Source: an uncultured Methanoregulaceae archaeon
GTDB lineage: Archaea; Halobacteriota; Methanomicrobia; Methanomicrobiales; Methanospirillaceae
NCBI GenBank assembly: GCA_963717525.1
Contig: OY970343.1
Location: 1,344,001 to 1,408,000, forward strand
DNA length: 64,000 bases
Direction: 5' to 3'
In this document: positions 35,227 to 56,232 of the stretch, in pieces
Position numbering within the stretch: position 1 is the first letter of the stretch
Layout: each line of letters starts with the position of its first letter
Position numbers and translations under genes: made by a program
Notes under the pieces: generated by a model
Databases searched by the model: none
Told to the model about the DNA's origin: nothing
What the model saw: only the letters and a program-made list of their open reading frames with translations

Positions 35227-35411
35227 CCGGATCCCCCGGTCTTTTCTTTCCTTTTTGAGACTCTGGAAAGCGGGATCGTCCGGCAGCACGCTTCTTTTTT
35301 TAGACTTTTTTTATCTTCTCAAAAGACCGTCTGATAACCCGGCCCCGGCATACTGCATCCCTGCCGCCAGTCGCACAGTATATAACCTCCCTGCCGCCTA
35401 ACTATGGATAA

Positions 35412-36807: not shown

Positions 36808-36856
36808 CACATAGATTTTTTTCACCTCACTGGCTACATAGATAGGACAGATCCAG

Positions 36857-37129
36857 ATGAAACTCGCCATTGACGAGACCCGGTGCAAGGGCTGCAATCT
36901 CTGTACAAAGGTCTGCCCGTACCGGATTTTCAAAGAGGGGAAAAACCCTAACCGGCGGGGGATCATCGTGCCGGAACTTGACCGGCCGGAGCGCTGCACC
37001 AACTGCAGGCTCCGCCATCTCTACGGACGGCAGCTCTGCGGCGTCTGCCAGCTCACTTGTCCCGACCAGGCTATTCACTGGGTAGAGGAAGAACCGTACG
37101 AACCCCATAAGGTGGCGATTGAATATTGA
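36857..37129 (+). CDS. korD: 2-oxoglutarate:ferredoxin oxidoreductase delta subunit (2x4Fe-4S)
   Basis: CKGCNLCTKVCP and CTNC...CQLTCPD; first gene of the kor cluster. Confidence 0.85.
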   Translation: MKLAIDETRCKGCNLCTKVCPYRIFKEGKNPNRRGIIVPELDRPERCTNCRLRHLYGRQLCGVCQLTCPDQAIHWVEEEPYEPHKVAIEY

Positions 37130-39029: not shown

Positions 39030-39565
39030 GGCGCGAGGTCAGGTTCTCCGGGTTTGGCGGGCAGGGAATCATCCTCTCCGCGGTCATTCTCGGGCGTGCG
39101 GCGGTGATGTACGACCACAAGTTCGCGGTGCAGACACAGGTCTACGGACCCGAGGCCCGGGGCGGGGCCTCAATGAGCGCGTTGATCATCGACGATGAGG
39201 AGATCCTTTACCCCAAGGTGGCAAATCCCGATCTCTTTGTGATCATGTCCCAGGAAGGATTCGAGAAGTACGGTGCCGCCACCCGGCCCGATGCCATCAT
39301 GATTCTCGACTCCTCTCTCGTCCATTCACGCCCGGACTGCACGTTTTATGAGATCCCGGCGACGGCAGAGGCGAAAAAAACGCTTGGCCGGGATATTGTC
39401 GCAAATATCGTGATGCTCGGGGCGCTTGTCAGGTATACACACGTCGTCAGTGAAGAGGCGCTCAAGAAAGCAATCCTCGATTCCGTGCCAAAAGGCACAG
39501 AGGCGCTCAACACGAAAGCCATGGAGCTCGGGATAGCTCTTGCAGGAGGGGAAAAACAGCCATGA
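39026..39565 (+). CDS. korC: 2-oxoglutarate:ferredoxin oxidoreductase gamma subunit
   Basis: GFGGQG, YGPEARGG, ANIVMLG. Confidence 0.9.
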   Translation: MRREVRFSGFGGQGIILSAVILGRAAVMYDHKFAVQTQVYGPEARGGASMSALIIDDEEILYPKVANPDLFVIMSQEGFEKYGAATRPDAIMILDSSLVHSRPDCTFYEIPATAEAKKTLGRDIVANIVMLGALVRYTHVVSEEALKKAILDSVPKGTEALNTKAMELGIALAGGEKQP

Positions 39566-40648
39566 AACTCCGTGAATACGAGGCAAAGAATGTGATAAAG
39601 GCAGCCGGGATCCCGGTCCCGGCGGGATTCCTGATACGCTCTCCGGATGAACTTACTCCGCACCTTGCGGAGCTTGGCGATGCGTTTGTTCTCAAGGCAC
39701 AGGTGGACGTCGGCGGGAGGGGTAAGGCCGGCGGCATCCTGATGGCTGACAAGGCCTCGGGCGTGATAGTCGCAAAGGAGCTTTTCGGAAAGCAGATCAA
39801 GGGCCTGCCCGTGAAGGAGATCCTGAGCTGAGCAGAAGCTCGGGATCCAGCACGAGTACTACCTCTCGATCACCGTAGACCGCTCGAACCGGCAGCCGCT
39901 TATCCTCTTCACCGAAGCAGGGGGGGTTGAGATTGAGATCACTGCAAAGGAACACCCGGAGTTGATCCGGAAGGTTGTCGCAAACCCTCTCATGAAAGAC
40001 CTCCCACCCTTCATGATCCGGGAACTTCTCGGTACGGCCCCAAAGGAGATCGGGCCGATCATCAACAGGCTTTACCGGGTCTTCATCGAGAAGGACGCGC
40101 TGCTTGCCGAGATCAACCCGCTGGTCATAACGCCGTCCGGCGTCTTTGCCGCGGATGCGAAGATCATCGTGGACGACAATGCGCTGGGCAGGCAGGGGAT
40201 CACGGTTAACCGCGATCTCTCGGAGCGGGAGCGGGAGGCCGAGAAGCACGGCTTCTCCTACGTGGAGCTTGACGGAAAGATCGGCGTGATCGGCAATGGT
40301 GCCGGTCTCACGATGGCGACGCTTGACCTTATCGAGTATTACGGGGGGAAGGCGGCAAACTTCCTTGACGTAGGCGGCGGGGCCGAGAGCGAACGGGTGA
40401 AAAACGCGGTCCGGCTCGTGGCGAGCGTCCCGACCGTCAGGGTCATCGTGGTGAATCTGCTCGGCGGCATCACAAAGTGTGACGAGGTGGCCAAGGGAAT
40501 CATCGCGGCAGGTATCTCCCAGAAGGTGATCGTCAGGCTCGCGGGAACGAACGAGGATGAAGGGAGGCGGCTTCTCTCCGAAAAGGGTTACGAAATGCTG
40601 GACACCATGGACCTCGTGGTGAAGAAGGCTGTGGAGGTGACCGCATGA
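39562..40648 (+). CDS. sucC: Succinyl-CoA synthetase beta subunit (frameshift ~39826)
   Basis: MKLREYEAK, KAQVDVGGRGKAGG, EINPL, GNGAGLTMATLD, ANFLDVGGG. Confidence 0.92.
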
Positions 40649-41523
40649 TCTACGGTGACAGGAACACCGGCCTCCTTGTGCAGGGTGCGACCGGCAAGCA
40701 GGGCGAGTTCCACATCGGCCTGATGAACGCGTACGCGAAGCAGGTCGGCGGCAATGGCGTCGTTGCCGGTGTGACGCCCGGCAAGGGTGGGCAACAGGTG
40801 CACGGGGTTCCCGTGTACAATACTGTGAAGGAGGCCATGAAGGAGCACGACATCGGTGCAGCGGTCATCTTCGTTCCCGCGGGGGCGGCTGCAGACGCCA
40901 TCATGGAGGAGGCGAACGCCGGCATCACAACTATTGTCTGCATTACCGAGCATATCCCGGTGCAGGACACCATGAAGGCGATCGCGTACGCGAGGATGGA
41001 GGGCGCCAGCGTGATCGGTCCCAACTGTCCCGGACTCCTTTCGCCCGGAGAAGTAAAGATGGGGATCATGCCCGCCGGGCTCTTCTCGCGGGGCAACGTG
41101 GGGGTCATCTCGCGGAGTGGCACGCTCACCTACGAGGTTGTGGACGAGCTCTCCCGGGCCGGCATCGGCCAGAGTACCGTGGTCGGCATCGGAGGCGACC
41201 CGGTCATCGGGCAGACGTTCGTGGACGTCCTGGGGCGGTTCGAGAAGGATCCGCAGACCAAGGCGGTCGTCCTGATTGGGGAGGTCGGAGGGAATCTGGA
41301 AGAGGAGGGTGCAACATCCACCAACCTGCCGATCGTCTCCTACATTGCCGGTGTCTCTGCCCCACCGGATAAGCGGATGGGACATGCGGGAGCGATCGTT
41401 GAGGGGGGCGAGGGCGATGCGAAATCCAAGATCGCACGCCTTAAGAAGCACGGCGTGCCGGTAGCCTCCCGCGTTTCGGAGATCCCGGACTTGGTCCGGG
41501 ATCTCTTCCGCTGCCACTGCTGA
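40645..41523 (+). CDS. sucD: Succinyl-CoA synthetase alpha subunit
   Basis: [30 protein letters not shown]. Confidence 0.95.
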
Positions 41524-41634
41524 TGGCACGGCAATACACCCCCTCTTTTTACCCGCTAAACGGAGAGTCTTTGTCAACAGTTGTGGGGCACTGAAATCCC
41601 AAAAAAAAGGATACTGAACATGGAACCCGCGGCA

Positions 41635-42456
41635 TTACCGCACAACCGCCGACGCATGCGCATCGAACGGGTTTGTCCGCATCGCAAGGGAGAACAAGTA
41701 GGGATAGTGCATCTTCAAATGGCGCATGTAGGTCAGCCATTCCATGATCAGCAGGCCGTAGACCCGGTTAATATCTCCTGAAAGATGGGCGAAATCCGAT
41801 GCCGGGAGGTCAGTGAGCTGATCGCGTGCCGCCAGCTCTTCAGTGAGGTGAAAAACTGCCTGGAGGAGAGGGGTGAAGCCTTCGTTTTCGATAATCTGCG
41901 AGTTCTCGAAGAGCGTGAGCAGGATACTCTTGTGTTCGCGCAGGAATCTGTCCAGTCCGGGAAGGTCAAGAGTCCTGCTGTCCAGCATATTCCTGTGATG
42001 CTGAAGGTTACCGGAAGCGCGGGAAAAGTCTTCCTCAGTCCACCTGTCTGACACGACAAGTGCAGATCGTACCTGGTCAGATTTAGGGTCTTTCTCAGAG
42101 AAGCGCCGCAGCAGGCCGTTACCTACTTCGGAAAAAAAGACCCCGACCAGCAAGTTGAGATTCCGCAACCGCACAGACCGCTCCCTGTTCTCGATCATCA
42201 GGTCAAGGCTTGATGCAGCAAGGCCCACAAAACAGCCGACCCCGACAAGGATAATTCCGATCGTGAGCAGTTTACCGGCATCTGTCACCGGGTGGATATC
42301 CCCAAAACCTACCGTTGAAATGGTCACGACGACAAAATAGAATGCGTCAAGTGGGGTCCGGTTTTCAAAGGTCATCATCCCGAACATACCTACGAGAATG
42401 ACGACGATAAGTATCGAGAGGTAGATACGCAAACGGAGATGGATGGTTTTGGTCAC
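41635..42456 (-). CDS. 2-TM potassium channel family protein
   Basis: Pore DAFYFVVVTISTVGFGD; GTG start at 42456 (the longer ORF overlaps the tRNA). Confidence 0.88.
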   Translation of the reverse strand: MTKTIHLRLRIYLSILIVVILVGMFGMMTFENRTPLDAFYFVVVTISTVGFGDIHPVTDAGKLLTIGIILVGVGCFVGLAASSLDLMIENRERSVRLRNLNLLVGVFFSEVGNGLLRRFSEKDPKSDQVRSALVVSDRWTEEDFSRASGNLQHHRNMLDSRTLDLPGLDRFLREHKSILLTLFENSQIIENEGFTPLLQAVFHLTEELAARDQLTDLPASDFAHLSGDINRVYGLLIMEWLTYMRHLKMHYPYLFSLAMRTNPFDAHASAVVR

Positions 42457-42510
42457 GTACGAGATTATATACACCCGGATATATAGGGATTCGTCTGCCG
42501 GGAACAATGA

Positions 42511-42583
42511 TACCCCCGACCAGATTCGAACTGGTGTCGCCGGATCCAAAGTCCTGCATGATTGACCGCTACACTACGGGGGT
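42511..42583 (-). tRNA. tRNA-Gln(TTG)
   Basis: Reverse complement ACCCCCGTAGTGTAGCGGTCAATCATGCAGGACTTTGGATCCGGCGACACCAGTTCGAATCTGGTCGGGGGTA; A1:U72 pair typical of archaeal tRNA-Gln. Confidence 0.95.
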
Positions 42584-43162
42584 CCTCGACGATAAGACCA
42601 CTAATCTAACAATTTTCAGATTTCGTGGCTATGTCCCTGTTATATCATTCTCTGATCTCAAAAAAGCATTGATAACCAGACAGGTTATGGGAAATCCGGG
42701 ATGATGGCCGGATCGAATGGAGACCTTGCCAAGTATTTTCGGTCTGAAAGGGGGATGAGATTATTTTCCCACCTGTTTCCCTATTCAGGAAGGCAGGTTT
42801 CACTGGGATACGGTTGGGCACCGCTTGCGAAATTATGCAGCGGAAAAAGGGGAATGGATCCCTGGTTTTTGTAAAAAGAGGAAAAATGGGAAATTTTTGG
42901 AAAATGGAAAATAAAATTCCGCTGCTCCACGAGATAAATACATTATTTATCGTTCCCATTAATTTCGGAAAAATGTGGAAAATCCGGATTTTTTTATCAT
43001 AAAAAACAGCCGGATTTTTTGAGATTGAGCGCACGAAAAACAGGCAGCAGGATCACCCACAAAACCAGAATTCATGAAAACGGAAATGGAAAAAATCCGC
43101 CATTTGTCCGGATCCGGTCTAATTCGGAAAAATATTAAGAAAAACCGGGCCAAAAAACCCCA

Positions 43163-43192
43163 ATTTAGTGTATAGCATCATACGGTTTATAT
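43163..43192 (+). repeat. 30-bp inverted repeat, left copy
   Basis: ATTTAGTGTATAGCATCATACGGTTTATAT; 29/30 identical to the reverse complement of 45962-45991. Confidence 0.9.
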
Positions 43193-43398
43193 ATAGTTAC
43201 TATAATTCTCAAACAAGGGAGAAAAACCCTAGATAAATGCAGTATTCCGGGAAAAGAACCCCAATATAAGGATTTTTAAGAAATTGCGAAATAGTGTAGG
43301 AATGAGGAACCGTTACGTATTCGTACATCTTTTCCCGTGGGAAAATCTGACGGGCGCAAGTGAACCTGGCTTATCAGGAAGAGAGGATAGGAGAATTT

Positions 43399-44320
43399 TC
43401 ACGAGTTTTCGTTATCGCTGGAGAGCGGGAAGAACTGCTGGTAGACCTGGCGGCGTTCATCGATATCTGTATGCAGGTAAATTTCCGTCGTCTTTATGGA
43501 GGTATGGCCAAGATTCTCCTGCACAACCCGGAGATTCTTGGACCGGCGGTACAGTTCGCTTGCATAGCTGTGACGGATCTTGTGTGGGGTGATACCAGGA
43601 GGGGCATAATATTTGAAAATATGCTGGATAGCCCTCGGAGAGATGTGCTTACCCTGCTGACCGATAAACAGGGGACCATCGATCCTGTTGCCCGCAAAAG
43701 TTCGGATCCCGGAGAGTGTCTCATCATCGACGAAAACAATCCGGATCTTGTCCCCTTTCCCGCGGATACGAATGGTATGTTCATCGAAATCGATATCTTC
43801 GATATTCATGTTACAGAGCTCGAGATACCCGGACGCCAGTCGAGTAGATCGTTCTTACGATCAGTTTATCCCTCGGATCCTCGATAGAATCGATCAGGCG
43901 GAGTACCTGGTTATGCTTGAGGTATTTTACCTCCTGTTGTTTGATCCGGGGACGTTCAATACCGCTGAGAGGGTTTGCCACAACAGCTCCTTGGGTTGAG
44001 AGAAACCGGTAAAATGAGCTGAGGGTAGAAATAATCCGATGAAACGTTTTGGGTTTATAGGTGCGCATCGTGGAGACAAACGAGAGAAAATCGGTTATCA
44101 TGGATGGCGGCACGTCAACGCTTGTATCAAGCCGGGCATTCTCAAAGTCCTTCCAGAAGAAGACCAGCTTGGTTACTTCGGTATGCCTGCGGAGCCAGAC
44201 ATAATAGCCGAAATGCTTGATCACCTGTTCATAGCTGTCAAGGGTCCGGGAAGAATAGTTGCGCATCCGCAGGTAATTTCGGTAACTTTTGAGCCAGTCC
44301 GAAAAATACCCGCTTCCCAT
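43399..44320 (-). CDS. Xer-type tyrosine recombinase (XerA-like; one +1 frameshift ~43823)
   Basis: N-terminal SAM-like domain (NYSSRTLDSY, ISTLSSFYRFL...NP); all catalytic residues after rejoining: TGVRVSE, GKGDK, HKIRH, LGH, TTEIY; about 306 aa. Confidence 0.9.
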
Positions 44321-44353
44321 GGTCTAATCTTTTTTATCTCAAATTAATAAAGG

Positions 44354-44381
44354 TTTGCGCAGAATACCTATTCTGCGCAAT
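44354..44381. other. dif-like recombination site (11-6-11)
   Basis: TTTGCGCAGAA-TACCTA-TTCTGCGCAAT; arms 10/11 inverted; 33 bp upstream of the recombinase start and next to its TATA-like box. Confidence 0.7.
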
Positions 44382-44880
44382 CCTGAAATTCCAAAAGAGG
44401 GGCAGATTCACGGTATTTGGAAGTTGCAATTCAGTGAATTGATCATCTCATTATTCCATTCAATCATGAAGTTTTGGGGGACATACCCATATGCAACGGC
44501 CATCTACTCAACGGTATGCTGGTTTCTTTATTCATTCTCATCTTAAGAGCAAAAAGGGCGTTTTTTTCATTTTCACCATACTTTTGCTCATTCAGTCGTA
44601 CTAATGGGCTGGAAACGCTGCTATTGCAATCTACCGTCGAACGTGGTCTCCGAGGAGGCCTTTGTAACCCAGCCTGATAAAAATTACCTGATAACCGGAA
44701 TCAGGTATACAACGGGATGCTGAAAACCATTATAGCAGAAACCGGATATTATGCACTACAATTTTCCAAAATGTGGATTATTCCAGAATTTCCAAAATTT
44801 CTCCGCCGAGGATATCTGGATTTCCCTTATTTTTCCCAATGTGAACTGTCCAGAACCTGGCCTACAATTCCGATATTTTT

Positions 44881-45507
44881 TCATGATTTACCCATCTCCT
44901 CACGTTGCGAATTATGCCGGTACAGCGTTGTATAATGGATATCCAGAATCCGGAAAATTGCCGCAATGAGGATATTTTTCCCCTGTAATTCCTGTATACG
45001 TTTCCACGGGATGACCCTTTTTTGCCTGCCGAGCGTTACCCCTTCCGCTTTCGCCCGGGCGATACCACGTGTTGTGCGTTCGATCAGATTTTTCCGTTCA
45101 TGGTCAGCAATCCACGAGAAGATCGAGAGCATAAGATTCCATAGTTTTTTATCTTCAATTCTGCTCCAGGATTCGGCTCGAGATAACGACCAGCCCCGGG
45201 TCCCGGATTCTCCGAGAGAAAGAAGCATATTCAATGTGTTAAGAAAGGACCGCCCCATCCGCGAAATTTCAAAAAAATACAACATGATTGGTTTCCCGGG
45301 ATGCGCCCTTATGAACTGGATCATGAGGGAACATCCTTCACGGTTCTGCATGGTGGAGATTCCCGACACAGGATCTACATAGATTAAATCCCGTGAGAGC
45401 CCTTCCTCAAGCAGAATCCTGATCTGATTCTCGACATTCTGATTTTCCCGGGAAACGCGGACATGGTCAAAAGGGGGATAAACATTTGGGTATCTTAAAT
45501 CGCTCAT
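44881..45507 (-). CDS. Serine recombinase, resolvase/invertase type
   Basis: HVRVS (catalytic Ser), Q..ENQ, SRMGRS, ADHERKNLIERTTRGIARAKAEGVTLGR, C-terminal HTH ending TTLYR. Confidence 0.85.
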   Translation of the reverse strand: MSDLRYPNVYPPFDHVRVSRENQNVENQIRILLEEGLSRDLIYVDPVSGISTMQNREGCSLMIQFIRAHPGKPIMLYFFEISRMGRSFLNTLNMLLSLGESGTRGWSLSRAESWSRIEDKKLWNLMLSIFSWIADHERKNLIERTTRGIARAKAEGVTLGRQKRVIPWKRIQELQGKNILIAAIFRILDIHYTTLYRHNSQREEMGKS

Positions 45508-45961
45508 TTTTGATTAATAAAACCGGGAAAAACATGCCCTAAAATGGAAAAATAAACATCGCATCGACGATTTGTATTTGGAAAATCTGGATTTATCCGG
45601 ATAGTGATCGATTCAAGTTCGCTCGATTGTTAGCCAAGAAAACAGGGGGGGCGTTAGTTTAAAAGAAATGAAGGGGTTCCACAGACAGTAACCAGAAACT
45701 GTCTCACTGAACACAAAAAAAGACAATAAAACGCCGCATCTGCCAATTACAGACTCAAAAAGTTTCCTGTTTTTCTATCGTAAACGCGCCAGATAAGCCA
45801 CAAATAGCCATAAATTCGCAATAGAAATCTCTTCCCAAGAGAGACGTTGAGGGTGTTTGCCTGGGAAAACGGCAAATTCCATATCATCCGAACCAGTCAA
45901 AAATTCCGAAATGCAAAAGAATTTTCTATAAATCCCCCGATAAATTGAAGATTTTTTATTG

Positions 45962-45991
45962 ATATAAACCATATGATGCTATACACTAAAT
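45962..45991 (-). repeat. 30-bp inverted repeat, right copy
   Basis: ATATAAACCATATGATGCTATACACTAAAT, the reverse complement of 43163-43192 with 1 mismatch. Confidence 0.9.
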
Positions 45992-46275
45992 GAACAGATA
46001 TTATCTTAAACTAAGGAAAAAGATTAACGGGAAAAACCGGAGGGGATATGCTCGAAGGCACATATTTTTCATAATGAGAGTAAGAGCTACAACAAAAGAG
46101 AAGATATGGAAATATGCAAAGTGGCCTCTGGTTTTGATCAGAACATCTGCAACCATTGACATTTAATAAGCAGCATCAGATCGCGAAAAGATCCGTTTAT
46201 CCTCAATTCAAACTTTAGGTAGAGAATACGAAGCCAAACAATTATGGTATTAAAGGGAACCATTGGTAATGTAGT

Positions 46276-46632
46276 ATGACAACGGACAACCAGTTCTTAA
46301 GTACAAACGAGGTGGCGAAGATCCTTGGTGTTCACCAGAAAACCGTCCACCACTGGCTCCGTACCGGAAGGCTTGTCGGCACAAAAATCTCCTATCGCGC
46401 CTGGCGGATCTCTCGTTCGGCATTGGAAGATTTCATCGAACAGAACAGTAATGTACATTCAGGAAATACAATCCCGGCATCACGTGAATCTGACAAAAAA
46501 ACACCCCATACTAAAAATCAGGGAGACAGTGATCTCCCTGGAACTTCTGGAACCCGTCCCGGAACAGAGATGAAACACTATATCCGGGATATCATGGGAG
46601 AAGATAGCAACATGCAAAAAAACAATGGGTAG
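46276..46632 (+). CDS. Excisionase-like / HTH_17 DNA-binding protein
   Basis: FLSTNEVAKILGVHQKTVHHWLRTGRLVGTKISYRAWRISRSALEDF followed by a low-complexity tail. Confidence 0.85.
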   Translation: MTTDNQFLSTNEVAKILGVHQKTVHHWLRTGRLVGTKISYRAWRISRSALEDFIEQNSNVHSGNTIPASRESDKKTPHTKNQGDSDLPGTSGTRPGTEMKHYIRDIMGEDSNMQKNNG

Positions 46633-47109
46633 CCGAATCGGCCGTTTTGATTCAATTTTTGATTCAATAATAGAATAATACTAACGGTTAACGATAACAA
46701 AACAATACAAAAAGATACAATATTCCTGAATCAATAAAAGGCGGGTAAATTCCTGGTAAAACACAATCCTCATACAGGGGTGGCTTTTAGGAGAGTCCAA
46801 TCCAGAGCATTACTCCATCTCCCCCACATGCATCATTGTCGATATCCCCCCACTTTACAGATTCACAGCGAACAGGGATTGGAGAACAGATAAAACGCCT
46901 GAAACGCATTTATTTCCTAGCCGCACCGGAAGCCAAGAGAGAATTGATTCGAACACTTCTGAATTCAGAACATATTCATAATTGTCCCCCCTTTTTCCCC
47001 GTGGATAAACCGCATACTGCTATATACAAATGGGATCTAACTAGTAACCAGAACAGAAAGACAACAGTCGTTCATTTTACGTTTCACCGACAAAAACAGG
47101 ATGATCTTC

Positions 47110-47898
47110 ATGGACGATGACAGCCAGAATGAGATTAACAAATATAAGAAATTCAAAAAAGTAGACGGGGCTACCTACCGGAAAGTCAACCAGTTCCTGC
47201 GTAAACGCACCTATATCACTGCGAGAGAATGGGCGCTTGCACGGCTGTGTACTGATTTCAGGACATCCGGCGGCGCCGAGATGACCTTTATCGGAAAGCA
47301 TCTCCCGGAACTGGTTCCCTTCATGGAGGAGCCGTATTCTCCTCAGGCCGTCAACCAGGCCCGCCATTCGTTCAAGAAAAAAGTTCGAAAAGCAAGCGCT
47401 ACCTTCTTCTATGGGGCGATGTGCGGTTTTTTTACCACAGATGAACTTGATGACCTTCTTTTTGAAGCAAGCGAGGTCTCGCGTTTTCTTCTGGAGGTTG
47501 AGGGTACATCTCTCGATATTGACGAAGAGATTGATATCGAAGACCGCATCACCAAGGTGATGCGGAGCGTGGGAGAGACCGCAAAGACCATACTCACCCA
47601 AAGGACTGACAACACACCGCCAGATGAGATGAAACCCCAAAAACGAGCCGGTGAAGGTACCAGCCCTTCTCCAGAAACTTCATCAGAGATAACCCATGCT
47701 CTCCCGCTGCATATCCAAGCAGAAGATACCTCCATTCTCTCGGGCTCTTCAAATGAGGAACATCCAGACCATGAAACTCAAAAAAATTTGTTAAAGATTC
47801 CGATCGCATCCGAACTAGTGGACACATCTTCATCAGGGAAAAATAATTCAAATCTGGATGATACAAACCGTTCCCATAACCCTGAAGAGGGACAGTAA
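47110..47898 (+). CDS. Conserved archaeal protein, DUF5806-like, with disordered C-terminus
   Basis: KYKKFKKVDGATYRKVNQFLRKRTYITAREWALARLC...FFYGAM; family name from recall, not from a search. Confidence 0.7.
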   Translation: MDDDSQNEINKYKKFKKVDGATYRKVNQFLRKRTYITAREWALARLCTDFRTSGGAEMTFIGKHLPELVPFMEEPYSPQAVNQARHSFKKKVRKASATFFYGAMCGFFTTDELDDLLFEASEVSRFLLEVEGTSLDIDEEIDIEDRITKVMRSVGETAKTILTQRTDNTPPDEMKPQKRAGEGTSPSPETSSEITHALPLHIQAEDTSILSGSSNEEHPDHETQKNLLKIPIASELVDTSSSGKNNSNLDDTNRSHNPEEGQ

Positions 47899-47900
47899 TC

Positions 47901-48311
47901 ATGAAAATTATCCCGGTTACCGGTCTTGCGAACTCAGGGAAGACCTCGTTCATCCGGAATCTCATCCCCGTGCTGAAATCTTATGGAAGCGTGGGCGTGA
48001 TCAAGCATCTCGGGGATCATGAGTACCGTCAGGAAGAGGGGAAGGATACAACCGTGTTTTTTGAGAACGGGGCTGATATCTCGGCGGGCATCGACTCCGG
48101 TAAATCCGTCGTTGCCCTCCGCACAATCGATCTGGATGTAATACTCCTTCTATTCAAACAGCAGGGGATCGATTTTGCAGTTATTGAAGGGTTCAAAACG
48201 CGCGATTTCCCGAAGATCATTATAGGGGATCTCCCCAGTGATACCTGCATCCTGCGAAACCCAACCGCTGATCAGGTTGTTTCCTCACTCACCCGGTTCG
48301 AAGATTATTAA
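47901..48311 (+). CDS. mobB: Molybdopterin-guanine dinucleotide biosynthesis protein B
   Basis: GLANSGKT, VGVIKH, GKDT, VIEGFK. Confidence 0.88.
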   Translation: MKIIPVTGLANSGKTSFIRNLIPVLKSYGSVGVIKHLGDHEYRQEEGKDTTVFFENGADISAGIDSGKSVVALRTIDLDVILLLFKQQGIDFAVIEGFKTRDFPKIIIGDLPSDTCILRNPTADQVVSSLTRFEDY

Positions 48312-48341
48312 AATGCAAAAACCCGATGAATCTTAACGAAA

Positions 48342-49715
48342 ATGGCAATAAAAAAGATCCAGAAACAGCTCTTTGGAACAAACGGGGTCCGGGGAATCGC
48401 AGGAAAAGAGATTACTCCGGAGCTCACTCTCCATATTGGTAAAGCGCTTGGCACGATGCGACCAGGACAGATCGCGGTCGGCCGGGATACCCGGACCACC
48501 GGCCCGGTCCTTGCCAATGCGCTCAAGGCAGGACTTCTTGCAACCGGGTGCGAGGTTATTGATTGTGGCATATTACCGACGCCTGCCCTTCAGTACATCG
48601 TAAAAGAACACTATGACGGAGGGGCGATGATCACAGCCTCTCACAATCCTCCGGAGTATAATGGAGTGAAAATTATCGAACCTGACGGGACCGAGATGGG
48701 TGATGAAGAGACCATCCGGCTCGAAGAGCTGCTGTCAGATCATTCAATACCGGTCAGACCCTGGAATCAGGTTGGAACAGAGGTGACAGCTCTCCATCTG
48801 GTCGACGAATATATTCATGCTGTTGCCAGCCAGTTTGAAGAAAATATTGGAAGAGGAATGACGATCGTGGTTGATCCCGGATCCGGCCCGGCCTGCCAGA
48901 CCACCCCGGCAATCCTCCAGGCGCTGGGATGCCGCGTGCTTACCATCAATGGAGTTATGGATGGGACGTTTCCGGGGCGTTTACCGGAGCCTTCCCCGGA
49001 AGGCCTCGAAGGGCTTGCCGCACTGGTTCTGGCAAGTCACGCGGCATTCGGTGTCGCCCATGACGGTGATGCGGACCGGGCCGTGTTCATCGATAACAAA
49101 GGCGTTTTTGTGGAAGAGAATGATGAATTTGCACTCATTGTACAGCATATCTGCAAAAACGCGAAAGGCATAATTGTCACACCGGTCAGTACCTCCCAGG
49201 TAGTCGAACTGGTTGCCGTTGCCGCAGGATGTACTGTGCAGTACACCCCGGTCGGAAGTATCTATGTCGCCCGGACCATGCGTCAACTCGTAGAAACCGG
49301 AAATCCAGTGATATTCGGAGGAGAAGGCAATGGAGGTCTGATCTTCCCGAACCATCAGTTCTGCCGCGATGGTGGAATGACCGCTGCAGCGATGGTCTCG
49401 CTTCTTGCTGAAACCGGCAAGAGTCTGTCATCACTCATCGGGCAGTTGCCGAAGCGGTATATGATAAAGGAAAAGATCTCAACAACCCATGGAGCACAAC
49501 TTATCGAAGGACTCGGAAAATACTATGAAGGGGAGTCTGTTGATCATACAGATGGCCTGAAAATCAAAAGGCACAAAAAGTGGGCATTAATCAGAGCTTC
49601 TGGAACAGAACCACTTGTCCGCATCATGGTGGACGCCGCTGAGCGCGATGCAGGACTGGATCTGCTTTCTGAAATAAAAACATCGGTCTCTGAGATCCTT
49701 GACGAACTCCCGTGA
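48342..49715 (+). CDS. glmM: Phosphoglucosamine mutase / phosphohexomutase
   Basis: LFGTNGVRG, ITASHNP, DGDADR, GGEGNGG, RASGTEP. Confidence 0.88.
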   Translation: MAIKKIQKQLFGTNGVRGIAGKEITPELTLHIGKALGTMRPGQIAVGRDTRTTGPVLANALKAGLLATGCEVIDCGILPTPALQYIVKEHYDGGAMITASHNPPEYNGVKIIEPDGTEMGDEETIRLEELLSDHSIPVRPWNQVGTEVTALHLVDEYIHAVASQFEENIGRGMTIVVDPGSGPACQTTPAILQALGCRVLTINGVMDGTFPGRLPEPSPEGLEGLAALVLASHAAFGVAHDGDADRAVFIDNKGVFVEENDEFALIVQHICKNAKGIIVTPVSTSQVVELVAVAAGCTVQYTPVGSIYVARTMRQLVETGNPVIFGGEGNGGLIFPNHQFCRDGGMTAAAMVSLLAETGKSLSSLIGQLPKRYMIKEKISTTHGAQLIEGLGKYYEGESVDHTDGLKIKRHKKWALIRASGTEPLVRIMVDAAERDAGLDLLSEIKTSVSEILDELP

Positions 49716-49950
49716 GCAGGGGGCATTTCCTTCTGGTATCAGGATGATGGAGATAATCAATTTTTTTATAATTATAATATGTTCGATGGGGGATGTTTTA
49801 ATAGAACGTAACAAATAGACCGAAAAATCATTAAAATACAGATTTTGCAAAAATTTCAATGGAAATTCAAAAACAGAACTAATTTATGATTTATTGAAAA
49901 CACAAATTATATAAACTATTTGAGTTAATGTCACTTTGCTTCAATGATAA

Positions 49951-52900
49951 ATGCAACAACAGAGTGGCGTAATGATCCTATCTGCAACAGTTACAGAAAA
50001 AATACGACAGGCTCTCCTTAAGAAAGACTGGGGAGGGATCGATACAATTGTTGCCGACTCATTGCGGTTTAAGGAAAAACGGGCCCGGGCGCTGATGCAG
50101 CGAACCGTAAATGAGGTCATCCTTGATAGTGCAATTCAGAACAATATACCTGAAACACTCCTGGCAATTCGTACTATCCCTCCAGAAGGTGTGGATGATT
50201 TTTTCTTGATGGTTTTAAAACAGTATATAAAAACGGGAAATAAAAAATGGTTTGACATACTCTTCGTTCTCTCGGAAAAACTGGGAAAAAAAAGTTTGCA
50301 ATCAAAGATTGTCGCTCGCGTCGTGCAGGAACTCATCTCAGAAGGGATCACTGAATCTGATCCCTCATATATCGAACGTGGATTGGCAGTTTTGAATAAA
50401 ATCACGTTCAGGAAGTACCGGTCGGATTGTATTGTTGAATCTGCATTCAAAATCACCAGGTGGACAATTCTCAGTGGTAATAGTAAGCTTCTCTTCCAGG
50501 TCCGTGACCTTATCAGCGGGATTAAGGATGTATCAAAACGGGCGGCATTGCATGCAGAGATAGCACAAGCACTGGCCGCAATAGCAATTAAAAACGGAGA
50601 TTTCCACCTCTTTCTTGAAAGCATTCAATTCACGGCAGAAATTCACCAGAAACTCCGAAGGAGAGACTGCCTTAACCATATTATCAGCACGGGAATGAGA
50701 TCATCTTTTGGAAAAGATCTTCTTGATGTCCGTGCACTTATTACCCATTTTGAAGAACTCCCTCGTGATATTCAGGAGGAACTGATCAACTCCCTGACGG
50801 AACAACTTCTGGAACGGGTAAAAAATAAAAATCAGATCCATGATGATTTCCATTTTCTCAATAAGAAACTGCCCTTTGTTCGTGACCGCCTTATACAGAA
50901 TCTCTTGAAAATGGCAGAGCGATCCGGTGATCCGTGGTATCTTACAACTGCCGTTGACTTCCTCAAGGACAACCTGTCAGAAGAGAAGTCCGGGGTCAAA
51001 GATATCGTTCGGACGGGGATTGCCGTAGCCAGACATACCCACTCAACTCAGGTTCTTGTTAATCTTATACCGTTTGTGGAAAAAGCATGCAGCCGTCATG
51101 AAACCCCGGCGATCTATCTGCAGTTTTCGCAAATTATGCTGGAACTGGGAGATTTTGACCGTGCCACCACCTTGTTTTCCCAGATAATACCTCCTTATGA
51201 AAGTTCACCCCAGTATTGCGTCTGCCTTGCAAAATTACTCGAAGAGGGGATATCACATGACCAAGGATCGTCACAATTTGAGGAGATGCTGGGGAAAAAT
51301 AATCCTGCGGTCATTTCAAATGCCATATCCCAGACGATTCACCAGATCGGTCATGTTTCACGGTTTGGAGATATTGTAAAACACAGTGGTTCGTTAAAAC
51401 AGCTCCTGACCCTGCATACAGGATATGACGCCGATATCGTAGATTTTATCACAGCCCTGACAAACCGGGGATTTCTTGATTCCTGTGATTCTTTTATCCT
51501 GGTAGATCTTGCAAAATTAATCCAGAACCCATCGGTCAGGGAACAGGCAATATCAACCGTGGTGATGAAACTCGCGGAAATTGGCGTGAGAACCGGAAAC
51601 CGTGATTTTCTCCAGCAAGCCGTGGGGATCACCTGTCTGATTGAGAGGAGGGAAATCCGCTCTTCAACCCTGAGCAGCATCATTGACGACGCAGCTCTTC
51701 TTGCTGCTACCCAGGGGGACCTCGATCTCCTGTTACGAATGCGAATATGGAGCAGTTCCTTTCTGGACGCCGGCCTTGTAGCGTATGCAATTAAAAACAT
51801 TATAGAAGGAGTGATAAAATACGCAACCAGCAAACAGGATCCTGATGCCCTTGATGAAGCGTACCGCATCGCTCAGGATATAGAGGATCCATCGTTGCGC
51901 TTACAGATGTGCGAGCGCATCGCTGAGTCGTTTGTCAAGATAGGTTGCGACCTTATACAGGATCTCTCCATTACACAGACGAACCAGGTGAATACCACTA
52001 TCTTGTTAAAACCTTTTAAAAGAAGCCTTCAATTGTTAAAGGCCGAGGTGAAAAAGCCCCAGATCTCTTTGAAAATTGCCGGAATGATTGACATAATACT
52101 CTTCTCCTCAAAAAAGAGCACCGGGCGAGATTACATTCTTCCTTTGGCATTGTATTCCCTAGAGATAGAGAAACCCCTGGAACGCAATGCCATGATGTCG
52201 CGGATAATCGCCAAACTCAGCGAGGATATTGTTTATCCGGACTCCGCAGATCCCTACGAAGTCCTTGCGTACATTCTCCAGAACTGCTATCGCCTGAAAT
52301 CAACTCCTGAAACTATTGACCTTATTCATCGACTTCTTGATCTCATGCATGATCCCTTTATACGCCTCAGGGAATTGTGCACCCTTGCAGATTCAGCCTT
52401 CCGGATAAACGATCTCGTTCTATGCCAGAAAATTCTCGACGAGGTTTATCTGGCTCTCCCAAGTCTTCCCGCAGAATACCAGAAAATCCTGATTCTCGCG
52501 GATTTGACCACCGGATTTCGCGAGATCGACATGGAAAAATCAAGACTCTGTTTACATGAAGGGCTGGATATATTGCGGTTTGTGGAGCCTGACCGGAATA
52601 CCCTCGTACGCCGGCAGTTGGTATCCGCAATTGTCCGTACGGGCACCCTGCTTCCTGAAAAAATCAGGATGGATCTTATTTTAGAGATAATAGAAAAAAT
52701 CTCCGATCCGATAGAATATGTAACAGCACTCATTTCTGCATACTCCCTGGAGCGCGAATACAGGGGTGAAAATACCCTGCATCACATTTCAGAAGCAATC
52801 GCGCGAATTGACTCTCCGTACGACCGGGCCATACTTATTTTAAAAATCGTACCTCTGGCACTACAGAACGGCGAGGACGATTTTGCCCTTGACCTGTTGG

Positions 52901-53532
52901 ACAAAGCAGAAAAATTATCAAAATCCATAAACATCCAGCATGTGGCTGATTCAATACGCGATGAAATTGCAGGAATTCTGGTGGATTTTTCCAGAAGGCA
53001 GGGGGATTCAAAATATCTGAAAAAATCAGCGGAAATTATTGCACTTATAGAAGATGATTATTTACGTCAGTATCGTCTGGCCCAGATAGGTTTTGAGGAT
53101 GCACTGGAAAATAGCGTCCCCCATACAAAAATCATGTCAATCCTGACACGGATTAATAACGGGGGAGCGCCCGGGCAGATTATGACACTTGAACAGACCG
53201 TCCGTTCCATTACCGATCGGGGGAAAAGGGCACTTATCTATTGCAGGCTCTCCATTCTTTCCCGGGATAAGGCGGATCTGAAGACAGCAAAACGGATGTT
53301 AAATAATGCAATAAAAGAATCGGATATAATCAGACCCCTTTCAAAAAGGGCATACATACGATGTGATATCGCGATAAAGATGTATACTGCAGGTTATGAG
53401 AGCGTTGCACAGGATATCCTTGACGATGCAATAGATGCAGCTACAAACATCAGGCAGTCCATTCTCCGGGACGAGGTCTTTAATGAATTAAGGCTTGCCA
53501 TGAGAGTAATGCAGGGAGGCGGGCAGGAATGA
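49951..53532 (+). CDS. 1193-aa alpha-helical repeat (TPR/HEAT-like solenoid) hypothetical protein
   Basis: Recurrent A..I.D...R...L..IA-type units (e.g. AYRIAQDIEDPSLRLQMCERIA, AIDAATNIRQSILRDEVF); no TM or catalytic motif recognised. Confidence 0.8.
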   Translation: MQQQSGVMILSATVTEKIRQALLKKDWGGIDTIVADSLRFKEKRARALMQRTVNEVILDSAIQNNIPETLLAIRTIPPEGVDDFFLMVLKQYIKTGNKKWFDILFVLSEKLGKKSLQSKIVARVVQELISEGITESDPSYIERGLAVLNKITFRKYRSDCIVESAFKITRWTILSGNSKLLFQVRDLISGIKDVSKRAALHAEIAQALAAIAIKNGDFHLFLESIQFTAEIHQKLRRRDCLNHIISTGMRSSFGKDLLDVRALITHFEELPRDIQEELINSLTEQLLERVKNKNQIHDDFHFLNKKLPFVRDRLIQNLLKMAERSGDPWYLTTAVDFLKDNLSEEKSGVKDIVRTGIAVARHTHSTQVLVNLIPFVEKACSRHETPAIYLQFSQIMLELGDFDRATTLFSQIIPPYESSPQYCVCLAKLLEEGISHDQGSSQFEEMLGKNNPAVISNAISQTIHQIGHVSRFGDIVKHSGSLKQLLTLHTGYDADIVDFITALTNRGFLDSCDSFILVDLAKLIQNPSVREQAISTVVMKLAEIGVRTGNRDFLQQAVGITCLIERREIRSSTLSSIIDDAALLAATQGDLDLLLRMRIWSSSFLDAGLVAYAIKNIIEGVIKYATSKQDPDALDEAYRIAQDIEDPSLRLQMCERIAESFVKIGCDLIQDLSITQTNQVNTTILLKPFKRSLQLLKAEVKKPQISLKIAGMIDIILFSSKKSTGRDYILPLALYSLEIEKPLERNAMMSRIIAKLSEDIVYPDSADPYEVLAYILQNCYRLKSTPETIDLIHRLLDLMHDPFIRLRELCTLADSAFRINDLVLCQKILDEVYLALPSLPAEYQKILILADLTTGFREIDMEKSRLCLHEGLDILRFVEPDRNTLVRRQLVSAIVRTGTLLPEKIRMDLILEIIEKISDPIEYVTALISAYSLEREYRGENTLHHISEAIARIDSPYDRAILILKIVPLALQNGEDDFALDLLDKAEKLSKSINIQHVADSIRDEIAGILVDFSRRQGDSKYLKKSAEIIALIEDDYLRQYRLAQIGFEDALENSVPHTKIMSILTRINNGGAPGQIMTLEQTVRSITDRGKRALIYCRLSILSRDKADLKTAKRMLNNAIKESDIIRPLSKRAYIRCDIAIKMYTAGYESVAQDILDDAIDAATNIRQSILRDEVFNELRLAMRVMQGGGQE

Positions 53533-53822
53533 AAACCCTTGAGATTATAATAACCGGCAGAGTACAGAAGGTAGGTTTTCGTGCCTGTGCAAGAAAGATC
53601 GCCATAGATCTCAATGTTACCGGTACGGTTATGAATCTCGCTGACGGGAAAGTTCAGATCTATGCATCCGCAGACCCAATTATTCTTGAAAAATTCATTT
53701 CAATGCTCTATAGTTGCCCACGAGCGGTGATAAGGGATATGCACGCAACGGAAATTCTGCCAAGAACCTATGCAGAATTTTCTATCATCAAAAATAATGG
53801 AAGAATCAGTACATTACTGTAA
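53529..53822 (+). CDS. acyP: Acylphosphatase
   Basis: GRVQKVGFR (canonical GRVQGVGFR), GTVMNLADGKV; ATGA overlap with the upstream gene. Confidence 0.88.
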   Translation: MKTLEIIITGRVQKVGFRACARKIAIDLNVTGTVMNLADGKVQIYASADPIILEKFISMLYSCPRAVIRDMHATEILPRTYAEFSIIKNNGRISTLL

Positions 53823-54738
53823 AGTCTTCCATTTTTTGAATAACTTTTAAAAAATTATTCACCTGGTTATCGAGTTTTTGATTGTCGATAGATTTTCTAA
53901 ACGCAGAGATCAGATTTTTTATTAAGTTATCCGAGAGCATGCACCGTGAAGAGGTTTGTTCAAAGTCCCCAGGTTTGAGGGAATCCCGGGCGATGCTGCA
54001 TACAACGTGATCGATCATCTCCGCCTTGAAAGGTCCGATAAAATCCCGTACAAGCGATCCTGGGCCCTCATGCAAAAGGCCGAGATCGGGATCCAGCCGG
54101 GCGCCAATGACAGAGACGCAGCAATTCCCAAAGAGCATCGCATAGCCAAACGAGAAAATAGCATTGATAGGATCGCATTGCGGCTGCATCGTTCGCCTCC
54201 TGAAATCGAAACATTTGGGGATATCCCTTGACAGGATCTCATAATACATATTTGCCGTAAGGTCAGATAACCGGCGGAGTTCATCCGGTTTTTCCAGATT
54301 CTCGAGATCATGGAGGGCATTATGCAGGATCTGCTGTTCACCCTCGTAAAAAAGATGTGATCCACGCTGCTCCTGAAGAGTCTCGATCGCGATCAGCCGG
54401 GATTTAAGAGAAGCCTGTGCAATGGTTCTCGCGTACCGATGCCGGGGCAAGTCCTCCTGCAGGTGTTGAATTTGTTTGTCATGAGCATTTCCAAAGGGTT
54501 TTAGGATTCCGACGGGAGTGCCATCAGGTTCAAAAAATGAGATATACGACCCGTTTCTCAGCAGATGAGAGATGGTTGTCGAGCTCAGGTGATGTCCCCC
54601 CACAATGAGGAGATTCTTTATCTCATCAAGCGGGTATTCTTCGACACTTCCATTATGGAGGACAATTAATTTTTTTTGCGTGGACTTGATGTGAGCCCCA
54701 AACCCATACACTGCCAGCCAAGGGATCGTTCGTGACAT
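53806..54738 (-). CDS. cas1: Solo Cas1 homologue, catalytically degenerate
   Basis: Cas1 pattern throughout (YPLDEIKNLLIVGG, ISFFEPDGTPVG, FRRRT..P..DPINAIFSFGYAML, LDPDLGLLHE, SLVRDF); no cas2 or array nearby. Confidence 0.9.
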   Translation of the reverse strand: MSRTIPWLAVYGFGAHIKSTQKKLIVLHNGSVEEYPLDEIKNLLIVGGHHLSSTTISHLLRNGSYISFFEPDGTPVGILKPFGNAHDKQIQHLQEDLPRHRYARTIAQASLKSRLIAIETLQEQRGSHLFYEGEQQILHNALHDLENLEKPDELRRLSDLTANMYYEILSRDIPKCFDFRRRTMQPQCDPINAIFSFGYAMLFGNCCVSVIGARLDPDLGLLHEGPGSLVRDFIGPFKAEMIDHVVCSIARDSLKPGDFEQTSSRCMLSDNLIKNLISAFRKSIDNQKLDNQVNNFLKVIQKMEDFTVMY

Positions 54739-54935
54739 AAATGCCCGTGTGAAAAAGATTGATTTAATCTACATAGTGCCCTTTTTTTCCTGATTAAGGC
54801 ATCGCTTTTGGTCATTAAATCCACATAAACAATAGTTCATTGTTAATTTCTGCAGATTATGTTCACCTGTGAACGAAGAAGTATAAAGGATATAAGAAGC
54901 CATACGTACAGTGTCATGCAATAGCATAACAGGTG

Positions 54936-56232
54936 ATGCGGATGTTCTGGGATAAAAAAATGGAGACGCTGAAACCTGCGGCTCTCAAGGCTCTTCAGCT
55001 GAAGCGTCTGAAAAAAACCCTTCACGCAGTACAAAATGTTGAATTTTACCGGAAACAGTTTGAAAGCGCCGGGGTATCTGCTGCAGATATCAAGACTCTT
55101 GAGGATGTCAGGAAATTACCCTTCACTAAAAAACAGGACCTCCGCGATGGCTATCCTTTCGGGTTCTTTGCGGTCCCGATGCAAAAAATTGTTCGGATCC
55201 ATACAACCTCCGGGACGACCGGGAAACCCACCGTAGTCGGATATACCCGCGGGGATCTGGATACATGGGCAAATCTTATCGCCCGGAACATGACCATGAT
55301 CGGCATTGGTGAGAACGACATCTTCCAGAATATGGTCAATTACGGGATGTTCACCGGCGGACTGGGGTTTCATTACGGCGCAGAACTGATAGGGATGACC
55401 GTGATCCCAAGTGCAACAGGGAATAGCCGACGCCAGATTGAGATGATTCGCGATTTTGGCGTTACTGCCATCCATTGCACACCCAGTTATGCGATGCATC
55501 TGTCCGAGGTTGCCGAAGAGATGGGCGAAACCCTTGAGAGCCTGAAGACCGGTATTTTCGGGGCTGAACCCTGGTCGGATACCATGAGGCATACCCTCGA
55601 AGAACGTCTTGGTGTTACAGCATTCGATTCATACGGTATGAGCGAACTTTTTGGCCCGGGTGTCGCATTTGAATGCCCCGAGCGGGACGGCCTCCATATA
55701 TGGCACGACAGCTTCCTGGTAGAAATCATCGATCCAAAAACCGGCGAATGTCTCCCCGACGGGGAACGGGGCGAGATGGTGGTGACACCGCTGGTAAAAG
55801 AGGCCATGCCGCTCGGTACGCTACCGGACCGGTGATGTCACCATGCTCATGGAAGACGGGTGCCTCTGCGGCCGGGGGAAAAAGATCGCACGGCTGCGTG
55901 GAAGAAGCGACGATATGCTGATTATTCGTGGCATCAACGTTTTCCCATCCCAGATTGAACATGTCCTGCTCAGGATTCCGGAAGTCGGCAATCAGTTTAT
56001 GGTATATATAGACAGAATCAATCATCTGGATGAGATGACCGTGGAAGTCGAGATAAACAGGAGCTATTTCAGCGGGGAACTAGCAGAGCTTGCCAAGATC
56101 CAGAAAAAAGTGGTAAAAGAACTGCACGATACCCTTGAACTGAGGACAACTGTAAATCTGGTAGAACCGGGTTCGCTACCCAGGTTCGAGGGGAAAGCCA
56201 AACGGGTCATCGACCGGCGGGGTGATATCTGA
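54936..56232 (+). CDS. paaK: Phenylacetate-CoA ligase family protein 1 (frameshift ~55820)
   Basis: HTTSGTTGKP, YGMFTGGLG, GAEPWS, YGMSE, GRSDDMLIIRGINVFPSQIE. Confidence 0.88.

Follow-up and report, generated by a model that had tools for sequence, protein, structure and literature searches.

An AT-rich neighbourhood in Methanomicrobiales that combines an intact xerA gene and a candidate dif site inside an inverted 21-bp pair with housekeeping genes and an inactivated Cas1-solo gene

The window analysed here, a stretch of 64,000 bp, comprises bases 1,344,001-1,408,000 of the single-contig genome G000 (2,288,003 bp, 54.5% GC) of an uncultured archaeon of the order Methanomicrobiales. It contains an AT-rich block in which a gene for the chromosome-dimer recombinase XerA and a degenerate cas1 gene are found at a short distance from each other, and a first-pass annotation of the sequence had proposed that this block forms one native module for dimer resolution or organisation of the replication terminus. 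We regard it as likely that the block consists of three adjacent units with small lineage-specific insertions, rather than of one shown module. The first unit would be a native Xer/dif system, formed by an intact xerA gene that carries a 28-bp dif-like palindrome of 11-6-11 architecture in its promoter, in an AT-rich non-coding setting. The second would be the housekeeping group DUF5806-mobB-glmM, and the third an operon for an alpha-solenoid protein and an acylphosphatase, placed tail-to-tail with an inactivated Cas1-solo gene. By acting on the palindrome, XerA would resolve chromosome dimers and possibly repress its own gene, and a pair of inverted 21-bp sites around xerA may serve as the site of another DNA-binding protein, or as a secondary recombination site, that organises the dif region; the roles suggested for the palindrome and for the 21-bp sites are read from sequence.

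For comparison, 18 loci from 15 relatives were fetched, and the window proteins were mapped onto these loci. Families within the order are labelled f1-f6 and genera g1 and so on, relatives' genomes carry G numbers and fetched loci L numbers, and coordinates given without a prefix are window positions.

The xerA gene (43399-44320, minus strand), encoding a tyrosine recombinase of the archaeal chromosome-dimer type (NF040815), is present in the assembly as two open reading frames (ORFs; 43811-44320 and 43399-43809). This split is a one-base insertion error of the assembly at 43822, and the gene is intact in the population: the base is absent from the contigs of all four sequencing runs compared, one of which belongs to a study not flagged as a possible source of the window. 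Without base 43822, the frame codes for 306 amino acids (aa), is free of stops, and shares 91.8% identity without gaps with the orthologue in the relative G004. The two halves score 107 and 159.3 bits on NF040815 when taken separately (cut-off 220; the mended frame itself is unscored), none of the eight further tyrosine recombinases in the genome exceeds 119.7 bits, and the orthologues of the relatives score 257-304 bits. In an alignment of the G004 protein with P. abyssi XerA (4a8e), the stretches RVSEL, GKG.K.R, PH..RHS and GH...TT..Y can be read, in which we see the motifs that carry the catalytic residues of tyrosine recombinases (R, K, H, R, H, Y). The frame that is intact once the error is removed, the best match to NF040815 and the aligned motifs together suggest that this gene encodes the functional XerA of the genome.

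The dif-like palindrome is located in the xerA promoter at 44354-44381 (44351-44384 in the repeat scan). Read on the minus strand, which is that of xerA, it is ATTGCGCAGAA-TAGGTA-TTCTGCGCAAA, followed by a TATA-like TTTATT, and its arms are complementary at 10 of 11 positions around the 6-bp spacer. In 15 of 17 loci, from five families, it stands near the start of xerA (within about 65 bp), and its distance is quite constant: it begins 61 bp before the ATG in 12 of the 17 loci and 58 bp before it in three f3 loci. Two f6 loci have the palindrome 0.7-1.2 kb upstream of the gene. Allowing at most 3 mismatches, the pattern TTGCGCAGAA-N6-TTCTGCGCAA occurs in 72 of 121 genomes of the order and the reversed control in three genomes; there is one place in G000, and one or two, mostly one, in each matching genome. 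The pattern is nearly absent from f3 (1/12) and f5 (1/22), where a diverged form is found at the same position. In genus g19 the palindrome reads TTGCGCATAA-N6-TTATGCGCAA (e.g. G094:C30:221179-221204), with the two arms sharing a G-to-T change, which would suit a site read by a symmetric protein dimer; presumably, this form resembles the left arm of bacterial dif.

Related dyads are found within about 150 bp of xerA in most of seven loci from outside the order, for example CTGTCGATAAA-TGTATA-TTTACCGACAC, GTGTCGATAAA-TAGTAA-TTTATCGACAT and TGTCTGTATAA-TCTACC-TTATACCGACT. The last of these is close to the dif site of T. kodakarensis, TTTTGATATAATGTACCTTATATGACAA, which was identified as XerA site by chromatin immunoprecipitation sequencing (ChIP-seq), and a dif-like element upstream of the xerA operon has been described for two haloarchaea (PMC11840125). 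In view of the fixed register, the conservation, the matching arm changes in g19, the dyads outside the order and the likeness to T. kodakarensis dif, the palindrome can be read as a dif candidate, distinct from the 30-bp inverted repeat of the same region. It is probably what the first-pass annotation had called a dif-like site. Since the palindrome overlaps the promoter, XerA bound to it may well repress xerA too.

The inverted repeat, also noticed in the first pass, has 30-nucleotide (nt) arms at 43163-43192 (minus strand, distal) and 45962-45991 (plus strand, proximal) that are complementary at 29 of 30 positions (97%) in the repeat scan. It proves to be an order-wide element of 21 bp and not dif. 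The conserved core, ATAAACCRTATGATGCTATAY, at 43170-43190 and 45964-45984, reaches 2 bits at most positions and has sharp edges with no conservation on either side, and its arms are unlike those of the palindrome. A search for the core 20-mer with at most 2 mismatches gave hits in 118 of 121 genomes from the order, including all of the good-quality ones (104/104), as compared to 2 hits for the reversed control. Most often, a forward and a reverse copy are separated by 1.5-4.4 kb. Wherever two copies were seen (16 loci), the left one is always on the minus and the right one always on the plus strand, with the conserved ATAAACC end directed inward. In 14 of these 16 loci xerA is positioned between the copies; in two f6 loci it is found just outside, with the palindrome still inside, so that the pair would always bracket dif. 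Only xerA is conserved between the copies, and the variable rest includes TnpB, DDE, Mutator and IS21 transposases and, in the window and G004, a serine recombinase. Among the seven loci examined outside the order, no convincing paired repeats were seen around xerA, an AT-rich 32-nt pair in L047 being ambiguous. We found no published description of the 21-bp element and no literature that pairs XerA with Methanomicrobiales, and the pair around the candidate dif appears to be a newly noticed, order-wide element. An RNA gene was considered for the core, and no Rfam family was detected at the window sites or at the 13 viral loci scanned.

It is conceivable, although on balance rather unlikely, that the 21-bp sites are recombination sites, either making the dif/xerA segment invertible or acting as attachment sites for small mobile elements, a role that would be compatible with the three-unit reading. 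The core can be parsed as 11 bp + 6 bp + 4 bp, that is, a conserved arm, a near-invariant GATGCT 'spacer' and an ATAY stub, and in this one-armed, asymmetric form it is like the sfx sites of the R64 shufflon, for which recombination takes place only in inverted orientation. The direction of xerA relative to the DUF5806 gene is flipped in four of four f4 genomes and nowhere else, as would result from one inversion between the sites. Furthermore, degenerate direct copies flank an insert of 0.65-1.1 kb in five loci of genus g1 (the window, L009, L010, L011 and L021), and an excisionase-type gene is present on three of the five inserts. The changes in these copies are mainly at core positions 8-9 and 12-17, most of them in the putative spacer. 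Insertion sequence (IS) elements and the serine recombinase have accumulated between the sites, and in the viral contig L060 (1-4768) an exact-pattern 20-mer stands 18 bp behind the end of a tyrosine integrase gene, which is followed by an array of 13 tRNA genes. This virus may use the 21-bp site.

These indications are offset by several observations. Contigs from three studies cross both sites in the orientation of the window, and no inversion joint was detected in the contigs of the four runs, in which rare variants remain hidden. The orientation is fixed within families, which implies that any switching between the sites is rare. The dyad symmetry is weak (about 5.7/11 on average, as compared to 3.0 +/- 1.5 for random AT-rich 28-mers of the genome), and XerA, whose palindrome has different arms, is the only conserved recombinase here. 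Most of the 19 stretches in viral contigs that hold the 20-mer are located in coding genes or belong to families of mutually related contigs, and about one exact match would be expected by chance in the viral set according to a rough estimate of our own that assumes even base use. With several of the matches inside coding genes, the viral occurrences remain only a lead.

Transposition of a mobile 'xerA cassette' was considered for G024, where the cassette stands apart from DUF5806, yet the distal flank is homologous to that of G029. This genome shows a chromosomal break between the proximal site and DUF5806, and no transposition. A third 20-mer of G000, with 2 mismatches, is located at the 3' end of a Vsr gene (10852-10871 of L053, which is G000:C1:308000-327500), within a low-GC island that starts at a tRNA-Asp gene and also carries a tyrosine integrase and split Dcm methylase ORFs.

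The third unit contains the only Cas1 of the genome, encoded at 53806-54738 on the minus strand (PF01867, 181.1 bits) by a gene of which the 3' end overlaps that of the acylphosphatase gene acyP by 17 bp. Alignment to solved Cas1 proteins places Ser, His, Asp and Gly at the active-site positions (Glu->Ser, and second acidic residue->Gly), which correspond to the catalytic residues E141, H208, D218 and D221 of E. coli Cas1 (PMC4046053). The protein can be classified as a Cas1-solo of group 1 that is inactivated by loss of two of the four catalytic residues. This group is confined to the Methanomicrobiales, shows no horizontal transfer and has an incomplete active site (PMC4046053, PMC9939771). 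The presence of a member in the window points to this order as that of its source. All 24 genomes of the order that were searched have an orthologue scoring at least 240 bits, as compared to none of 126 from the rest of the phylum, where the best score was 82.5 bits, in agreement with the first-pass pointer to a Cas1-solo clade limited to this order. Among 16 orthologues, the first Asp (D232) is the only invariant one of the four catalytic places, 46 other columns are invariant, and stops are absent save in one 56%-complete genome; Cas1-solo appears to be under purifying selection. General scans of the block proteins gave no cas family besides Cas1, and a repeat scan of 41000-56000 gave no array-like family.

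The acylphosphatase (53529-53822, plus strand; PF00708, 66.5 bits, cut-off 22.5) has an intact active site. Residues G10, V12, Q13, G16, F17, R18, G32, V34, N36 and G40 are invariant in 16 orthologues, and R18 and N36 presumably are the catalytic pair. All 18 loci that were compared have acyP and cas1 in convergent orientation, and the 3' ends of the two genes overlap in most cases. Two other acylphosphatase domains are encoded in G000. G022 and G026 have no stand-alone copy other than that linked to cas1, which may therefore be an ordinary housekeeping enzyme. The start of acyP overlaps the stop of the preceding gene (49951-53532, plus strand) in an ATGA, and this gene codes for a 1193-aa protein that we describe as an alpha-solenoid, a scaffold of TPR/HEAT-like type. 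It had no match in Pfam, NCBIfam or PHROG. The AlphaFold2 model, with a predicted local distance difference test (pLDDT) score of 85.5, is a single long all-helical alpha-solenoid of about 65 helices, for which Foldseek returned only generic solenoids (Ski3, IFT-A, separase and CAND1; template modelling (TM) scores 0.11-0.23), and its Atlas feature neighbours are TPR proteins. A protein of 1185-1208 aa precedes acyP in 14 of the 17 cas1-holding loci of relatives, and no solenoid was detected in G021, G023 or G026. In G031, G041, G047 and G053 (genera g10 and g12), the spacing between cas1 and DUF5806 is only 3.2-3.8 kb, which leaves no room for a gene for about 1190 aa. Judged from spacing alone, several losses of the solenoid thus seem to have taken place within the order.

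The prediction of a complex between Cas1 and the acylphosphatase gave a score of 0.00; with alignments of 16 rows each and no controls, this is no evidence either way. Conserved adjacency is the only apparent tie of Cas1 to AcyP, the solenoid or XerA, and genes in convergent orientation are not co-transcribed. We found no literature that joins Cas1, acylphosphatase and Methanomicrobiales, and the neighbourhood of Cas1-solo appears to be new, though the primary survey of the clade may already describe it.

The second unit starts with the DUF5806 gene (47101-47898, plus strand), the product of which has a conserved helical domain of about 150 aa and a disordered tail. The first-pass annotation was right about its presence, but the label 'DUF5806-like' was too weak, as the protein is a true DUF5806 member at 236.8 bits on PF19122. 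It is followed by the housekeeping genes mobB (47901-48311, plus strand; TIGR00176, 87.6 bits, cut-off 76.2) and archaeal glmM (48342-49715, plus strand; TIGR03990, 521.9 bits, cut-off 439). Of 151 good-quality genomes from the phylum, 81 gave a match to DUF5806, of which 79 have a single one and two have a pair; 80 are over the family cut-off, and 56 genomes with DUF5806 are from outside the order. In eight of nine such genomes compared, the gene is at least 0.38 Mb away from the XerA-family match; the distance is 91 kb in G166. The neighbours in 14 loci from outside the order have nothing in common, and none of them is xerA, mobB or glmM. This separation and the lack of shared neighbours make the position of DUF5806 beside xerA look like an accident of the history of the order, and they argue against the role as Xer partner that had been proposed for the protein. 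Its structural model is helical (pLDDT 72), and Foldseek gave no match at E <=0.001. A LuxR/sigma-4 fold, a four-helix helix-turn-helix (HTH), was tried and rejected because the VIA-align Z score did not exceed 5.2, which is within the stated noise of the tool for helical models. In run X1, a second contig of lower depth differs at 10 places from the 5' part of the DUF5806 gene (window 47190-47310) and likely represents a co-occurring strain or close relative.

The order xerA ... DUF5806-(mobB)-glmM-(solenoid)-acyP-> <-cas1 was found in 12 relatives from families f1, f2, f3, f5 and f6, the arrangement in G004 spanning two loci. The outer flanks (sucCD and a K+ channel gene on one side, paaK on the other) are common only to the genus or to some families, and protein identities drop with the degree of kinship assigned by the tool. 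These data, collected by the synteny comparison and profiling that the first-pass annotation had called for, agree with its view that the linkage is native and not strain-specific, and they suggest that the block is a vertically inherited neighbourhood of the order.

Whether linkage also means joint function is another matter. According to the first-pass annotation, DUF5806, the solenoid, the acylphosphatase and the dead Cas1 cooperate with XerA in a single module that resolves dimers or organises the terminus, and in which Cas1 binds branched DNA without catalysis. We consider this improbable, even though some findings do speak for it: xerA and cas1 are within 20 kb on one contig in 26 of the 36 genomes of this order for which the position of both is known, from five of six families and despite changing flanks; no genome of the order that was searched lacks Cas1-solo, which is seemingly kept by selection; and Cas1 enzymes act on branched DNA (PMC4046053). 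However, in the f4 genomes G021 and G026 the acyP/cas1 pair is 1.1-1.2 Mb away from xerA on the same chromosome. In eight of the 36 genomes the two genes are on different contigs, including f4 G033 and G039; G029, also among these, is consistent with adjacency across a contig end, and G024 has the real xerA/DUF5806 break mentioned above. The genomes without a detected solenoid, the dispersal of DUF5806 outside the order and the possible housekeeping nature of the cas1-linked acylphosphatase also argue against a module, as does the location of the locus away from the antipode of orc1/cdc6. Units 1 and 3 would be tied by synteny only, the single terminus module is not supported, and junction binding by Cas1 is putative.

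A terminus location, the other part of the earlier proposal, was evaluated by the position of orc1/cdc6 and by GC skew. From xerA (1.388 Mb) to the main orc1/cdc6 gene of G000 (447 bits; 2.013 Mb), the distance is 27.4% of the chromosome, and in four other complete genomes it is 43.5%, 45.7%, 25.6% and 31.8%. About 50% is expected for a terminus under a single origin. The cumulative skew peaks at 0.84 Mb and reaches its bottom at 2.19 Mb, with no turn at the locus (1.39 Mb). A terminus position is not supported by these data, which are proxies, and multiple origins are possible. A second orc1/cdc6 paralogue (260.7 bits; G000:C1:1425359-1427796) is situated 37-39 kb to the right of the block and adjoins a stand-alone acylphosphatase gene. 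The same class of second orc1 is 93-96 kb away from xerA in G025 and G030 and 0.58-0.82 Mb away in G022 and G026.

Some considerations weigh against the reading of the block as three separate units. The conservation in five families of a 10-kb order that is not an operon, between flanks that are not conserved, goes beyond ordinary synteny decay, and it suggests that a common constraint on the three units is possible. For the palindrome, a simple operator site for some other regulator is a possible alternative, and the direct degenerate copies of the 21-bp core in g1, together with extra copies in several genomes, are what a recombination site would show. Finally, the terminus is poorly approximated by the location of orc1/cdc6 and by a weak skew in a metagenome-assembled genome.

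A further proposal is that the inverted 21-bp pair, the AT-rich DNA and the dif in the promoter jointly make up a chromosome-architecture element, with Cas1 working on recombination intermediates. As a joint claim we hold this to be doubtful at best. The 21-bp sites would then be oriented binding sites for a protein that stalls SMC (structural maintenance of chromosomes) complexes or loops the DNA to either side of dif, and this would promote dif-dif synapsis inside a chromosome dimer, in an archaeon that lacks FtsK and probably is polyploid. The solenoid, acylphosphatase and Cas1-solo genes would have been kept nearby since an exapted Cas1 acts on recombination intermediates.

That the block is a horizontally acquired island, or a degraded element integrated at tRNA-Gln, is most improbable and already contradicted by synteny: low GC beside a tRNA gene, tyrosine and serine recombinases and an excisionase-type HTH gene would fit, but the gene order is identical in five families with identities that track kinship, the tyrosine recombinase is the XerA orthologue of the genome, mobB and glmM count as core genes, lineage specificity is limited to the serine recombinase and HTH genes, and the longest fragment of tRNA-Gln elsewhere in the window is 10 bp. 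The order shared across families, the family-limited flanks and the absence of a tRNA-Gln repeat rule out a recent island.

The two lineage-specific genes can best be viewed as insertions into the three-unit arrangement. The small serine recombinase of resolvase/invertase type (44881-45507, minus strand; PF00239, 72.4 bits; PHROG 125, DNA invertase) has a counterpart in only one of the 15 relatives, G004, and one distant paralogue elsewhere in the genome; it appears to be a lineage-specific passenger. The HTH_17/excisionase-family protein (46276-46632, plus strand; PF12728, 58.7 bits; TIGR01764, 40.8 bits) has counterparts only in G004 and G009 among the same relatives, which is conservation at the genus level. 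Its gene sits between two direct 21-bp copies, the proximal one (45964-45983) and a degenerate third copy that matches at 16 of 20 bases (47005-47024, plus strand) and stands 77 bp before the DUF5806 start. Family searches of the block proteins recovered all genes listed in the first-pass annotation, and XerA, a dif-like site and an AT-richer composition with long intergenic gaps were found as described. Its statements that phage genes and an att duplication are lacking do not hold, as the serine recombinase matches a phage DNA-invertase family, the HTH protein matches excisionases, and the direct copies flank the HTH gene. As a whole, the earlier observation is partly confirmed and its interpretation partly supported.

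With respect to composition, GC per 1-kb segment is 0.417-0.522 over 42001-55000, as compared to 0.584-0.614 over 35001-42000. Between 42584 and 47100, 2611 bp are intergenic with an AT content of 0.60-0.63 (60-63%), and several 200-bp segments exceed the 95th percentile of the genome in AT. The whole genome has 50 low-GC segments of this kind, so the block does not stand out by its composition alone. On the left, the conserved neighbourhood is delimited by tRNA-Gln(TTG) (42511-42583, minus strand; ARAGORN, Rfam), of which no fragment repeat longer than 10 bp occurs within the window. This tRNA gene is found 0.4-2.6 kb past the distal 21-bp site in 10 of 14 loci of relatives and also in L050; in L016 it is present and no distal 21-bp site was found there. 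Contigs of three runs break at tRNA-Gln (window 42554-42603), with loose ends entering other sequence, probably due to tRNA-Gln genes of other organisms or to strain variation at the border. Elsewhere in the window, a 1-kb stretch at 5001-6000 has a GC content of only 30.1%, and a 169-bp tRNA match at 8877-9045 has a C/D-box small RNA match (sR3; 8925-8984) inside it, which points to a guide RNA within an intron.

The assembly error in xerA is not the only one. The gene paaK1 (54933-56232) is split likewise by an inserted base at 55815, and its mended frame has 432 aa. Bases 55815 and 56237 are absent from the contigs of the same four runs, which brings the one-base errors to three in 15.2 kb (43822, 55815 and 56237). 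With such a frequency, other 'pseudogenes' of this assembly and its completeness estimate of 87% may be artefacts as well. That the 'broken' xerA and paaK1 are sequencing artefacts is relevant to anyone annotating this genome. The best-matching sequencing runs for the window are soil and bog metagenomes.

The findings bear on the question of how archaea steer Xer recombination to resolution without FtsK, and on the function of the inactivated Cas1-solo clade, which has been noted since 2013. As leads, most use can be expected from the bracketing 21-bp pair at dif and from the constant neighbours of Cas1-solo. The former is an order-wide, strictly conserved and oriented pair that brackets the candidate dif together with xerA, and the latter provide an intact acylphosphatase and a giant solenoid that can be tested for complex formation.

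In the bacterial XerS/difSL and XerH/difH systems, a single recombinase gene and its site form one unit, as seems to be the case here; we know of no paired bracket sites in these systems or in the Rci/sfx system of the shufflon. The archaeal XerA/dif systems of P. abyssi and T. kodakarensis (PMC2958812, PMC11840125) are similar in that the relatives have one XerA-family recombinase above the cut-off, and in that the site has 28 bp with 11-bp inverted arms, a 6-bp spacer and AT-rich surroundings. The site proposed here differs by its position within the xerA promoter, since Thermococcales dif is not beside xerA, and by being bracketed by a conserved inverted 21-bp pair. A closer likeness in position exists to the haloarchaeal dif-like element, which is also beside xerA and from the same phylum (PMC11840125). 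In T. kodakarensis, dif is located in a 1.9-kb, exceptionally AT-rich intergenic region that acts as an SMC-dependent domain boundary without involvement of XerA or dif (PMC11840125). The long, very AT-rich non-coding setting of the candidate dif, here known from sequence alone, resembles this boundary element. The latter is ascribed to AT-rich DNA, A-tracts and TrmBL2 (PMC11840125), whereas a discrete and oriented 21-bp motif is present here.

Casposons, to which the Cas1-solo proteins of group 2 belong, also have Cas1 outside a CRISPR locus. However, a casposon was rejected for the window: no PolB or other polymerase family, HNH protein or terminal repeats were found around cas1 in the block, where the inverted repeats flank xerA and not cas1, and this Cas1 has lost catalytic residues and is single-copy and syntenic. 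The traits of Cas1-solo group 1, namely occurrence in one order, vertical inheritance and an incomplete catalytic set, are reproduced here. Neither PMC4046053 nor PMC9939771, in the portions accessible to us, gives a gene context or a partner for this group, whereas in the genomes compared here the cas1 gene is constantly accompanied by an acylphosphatase gene and usually by a gene for a solenoid of about 1190 aa.

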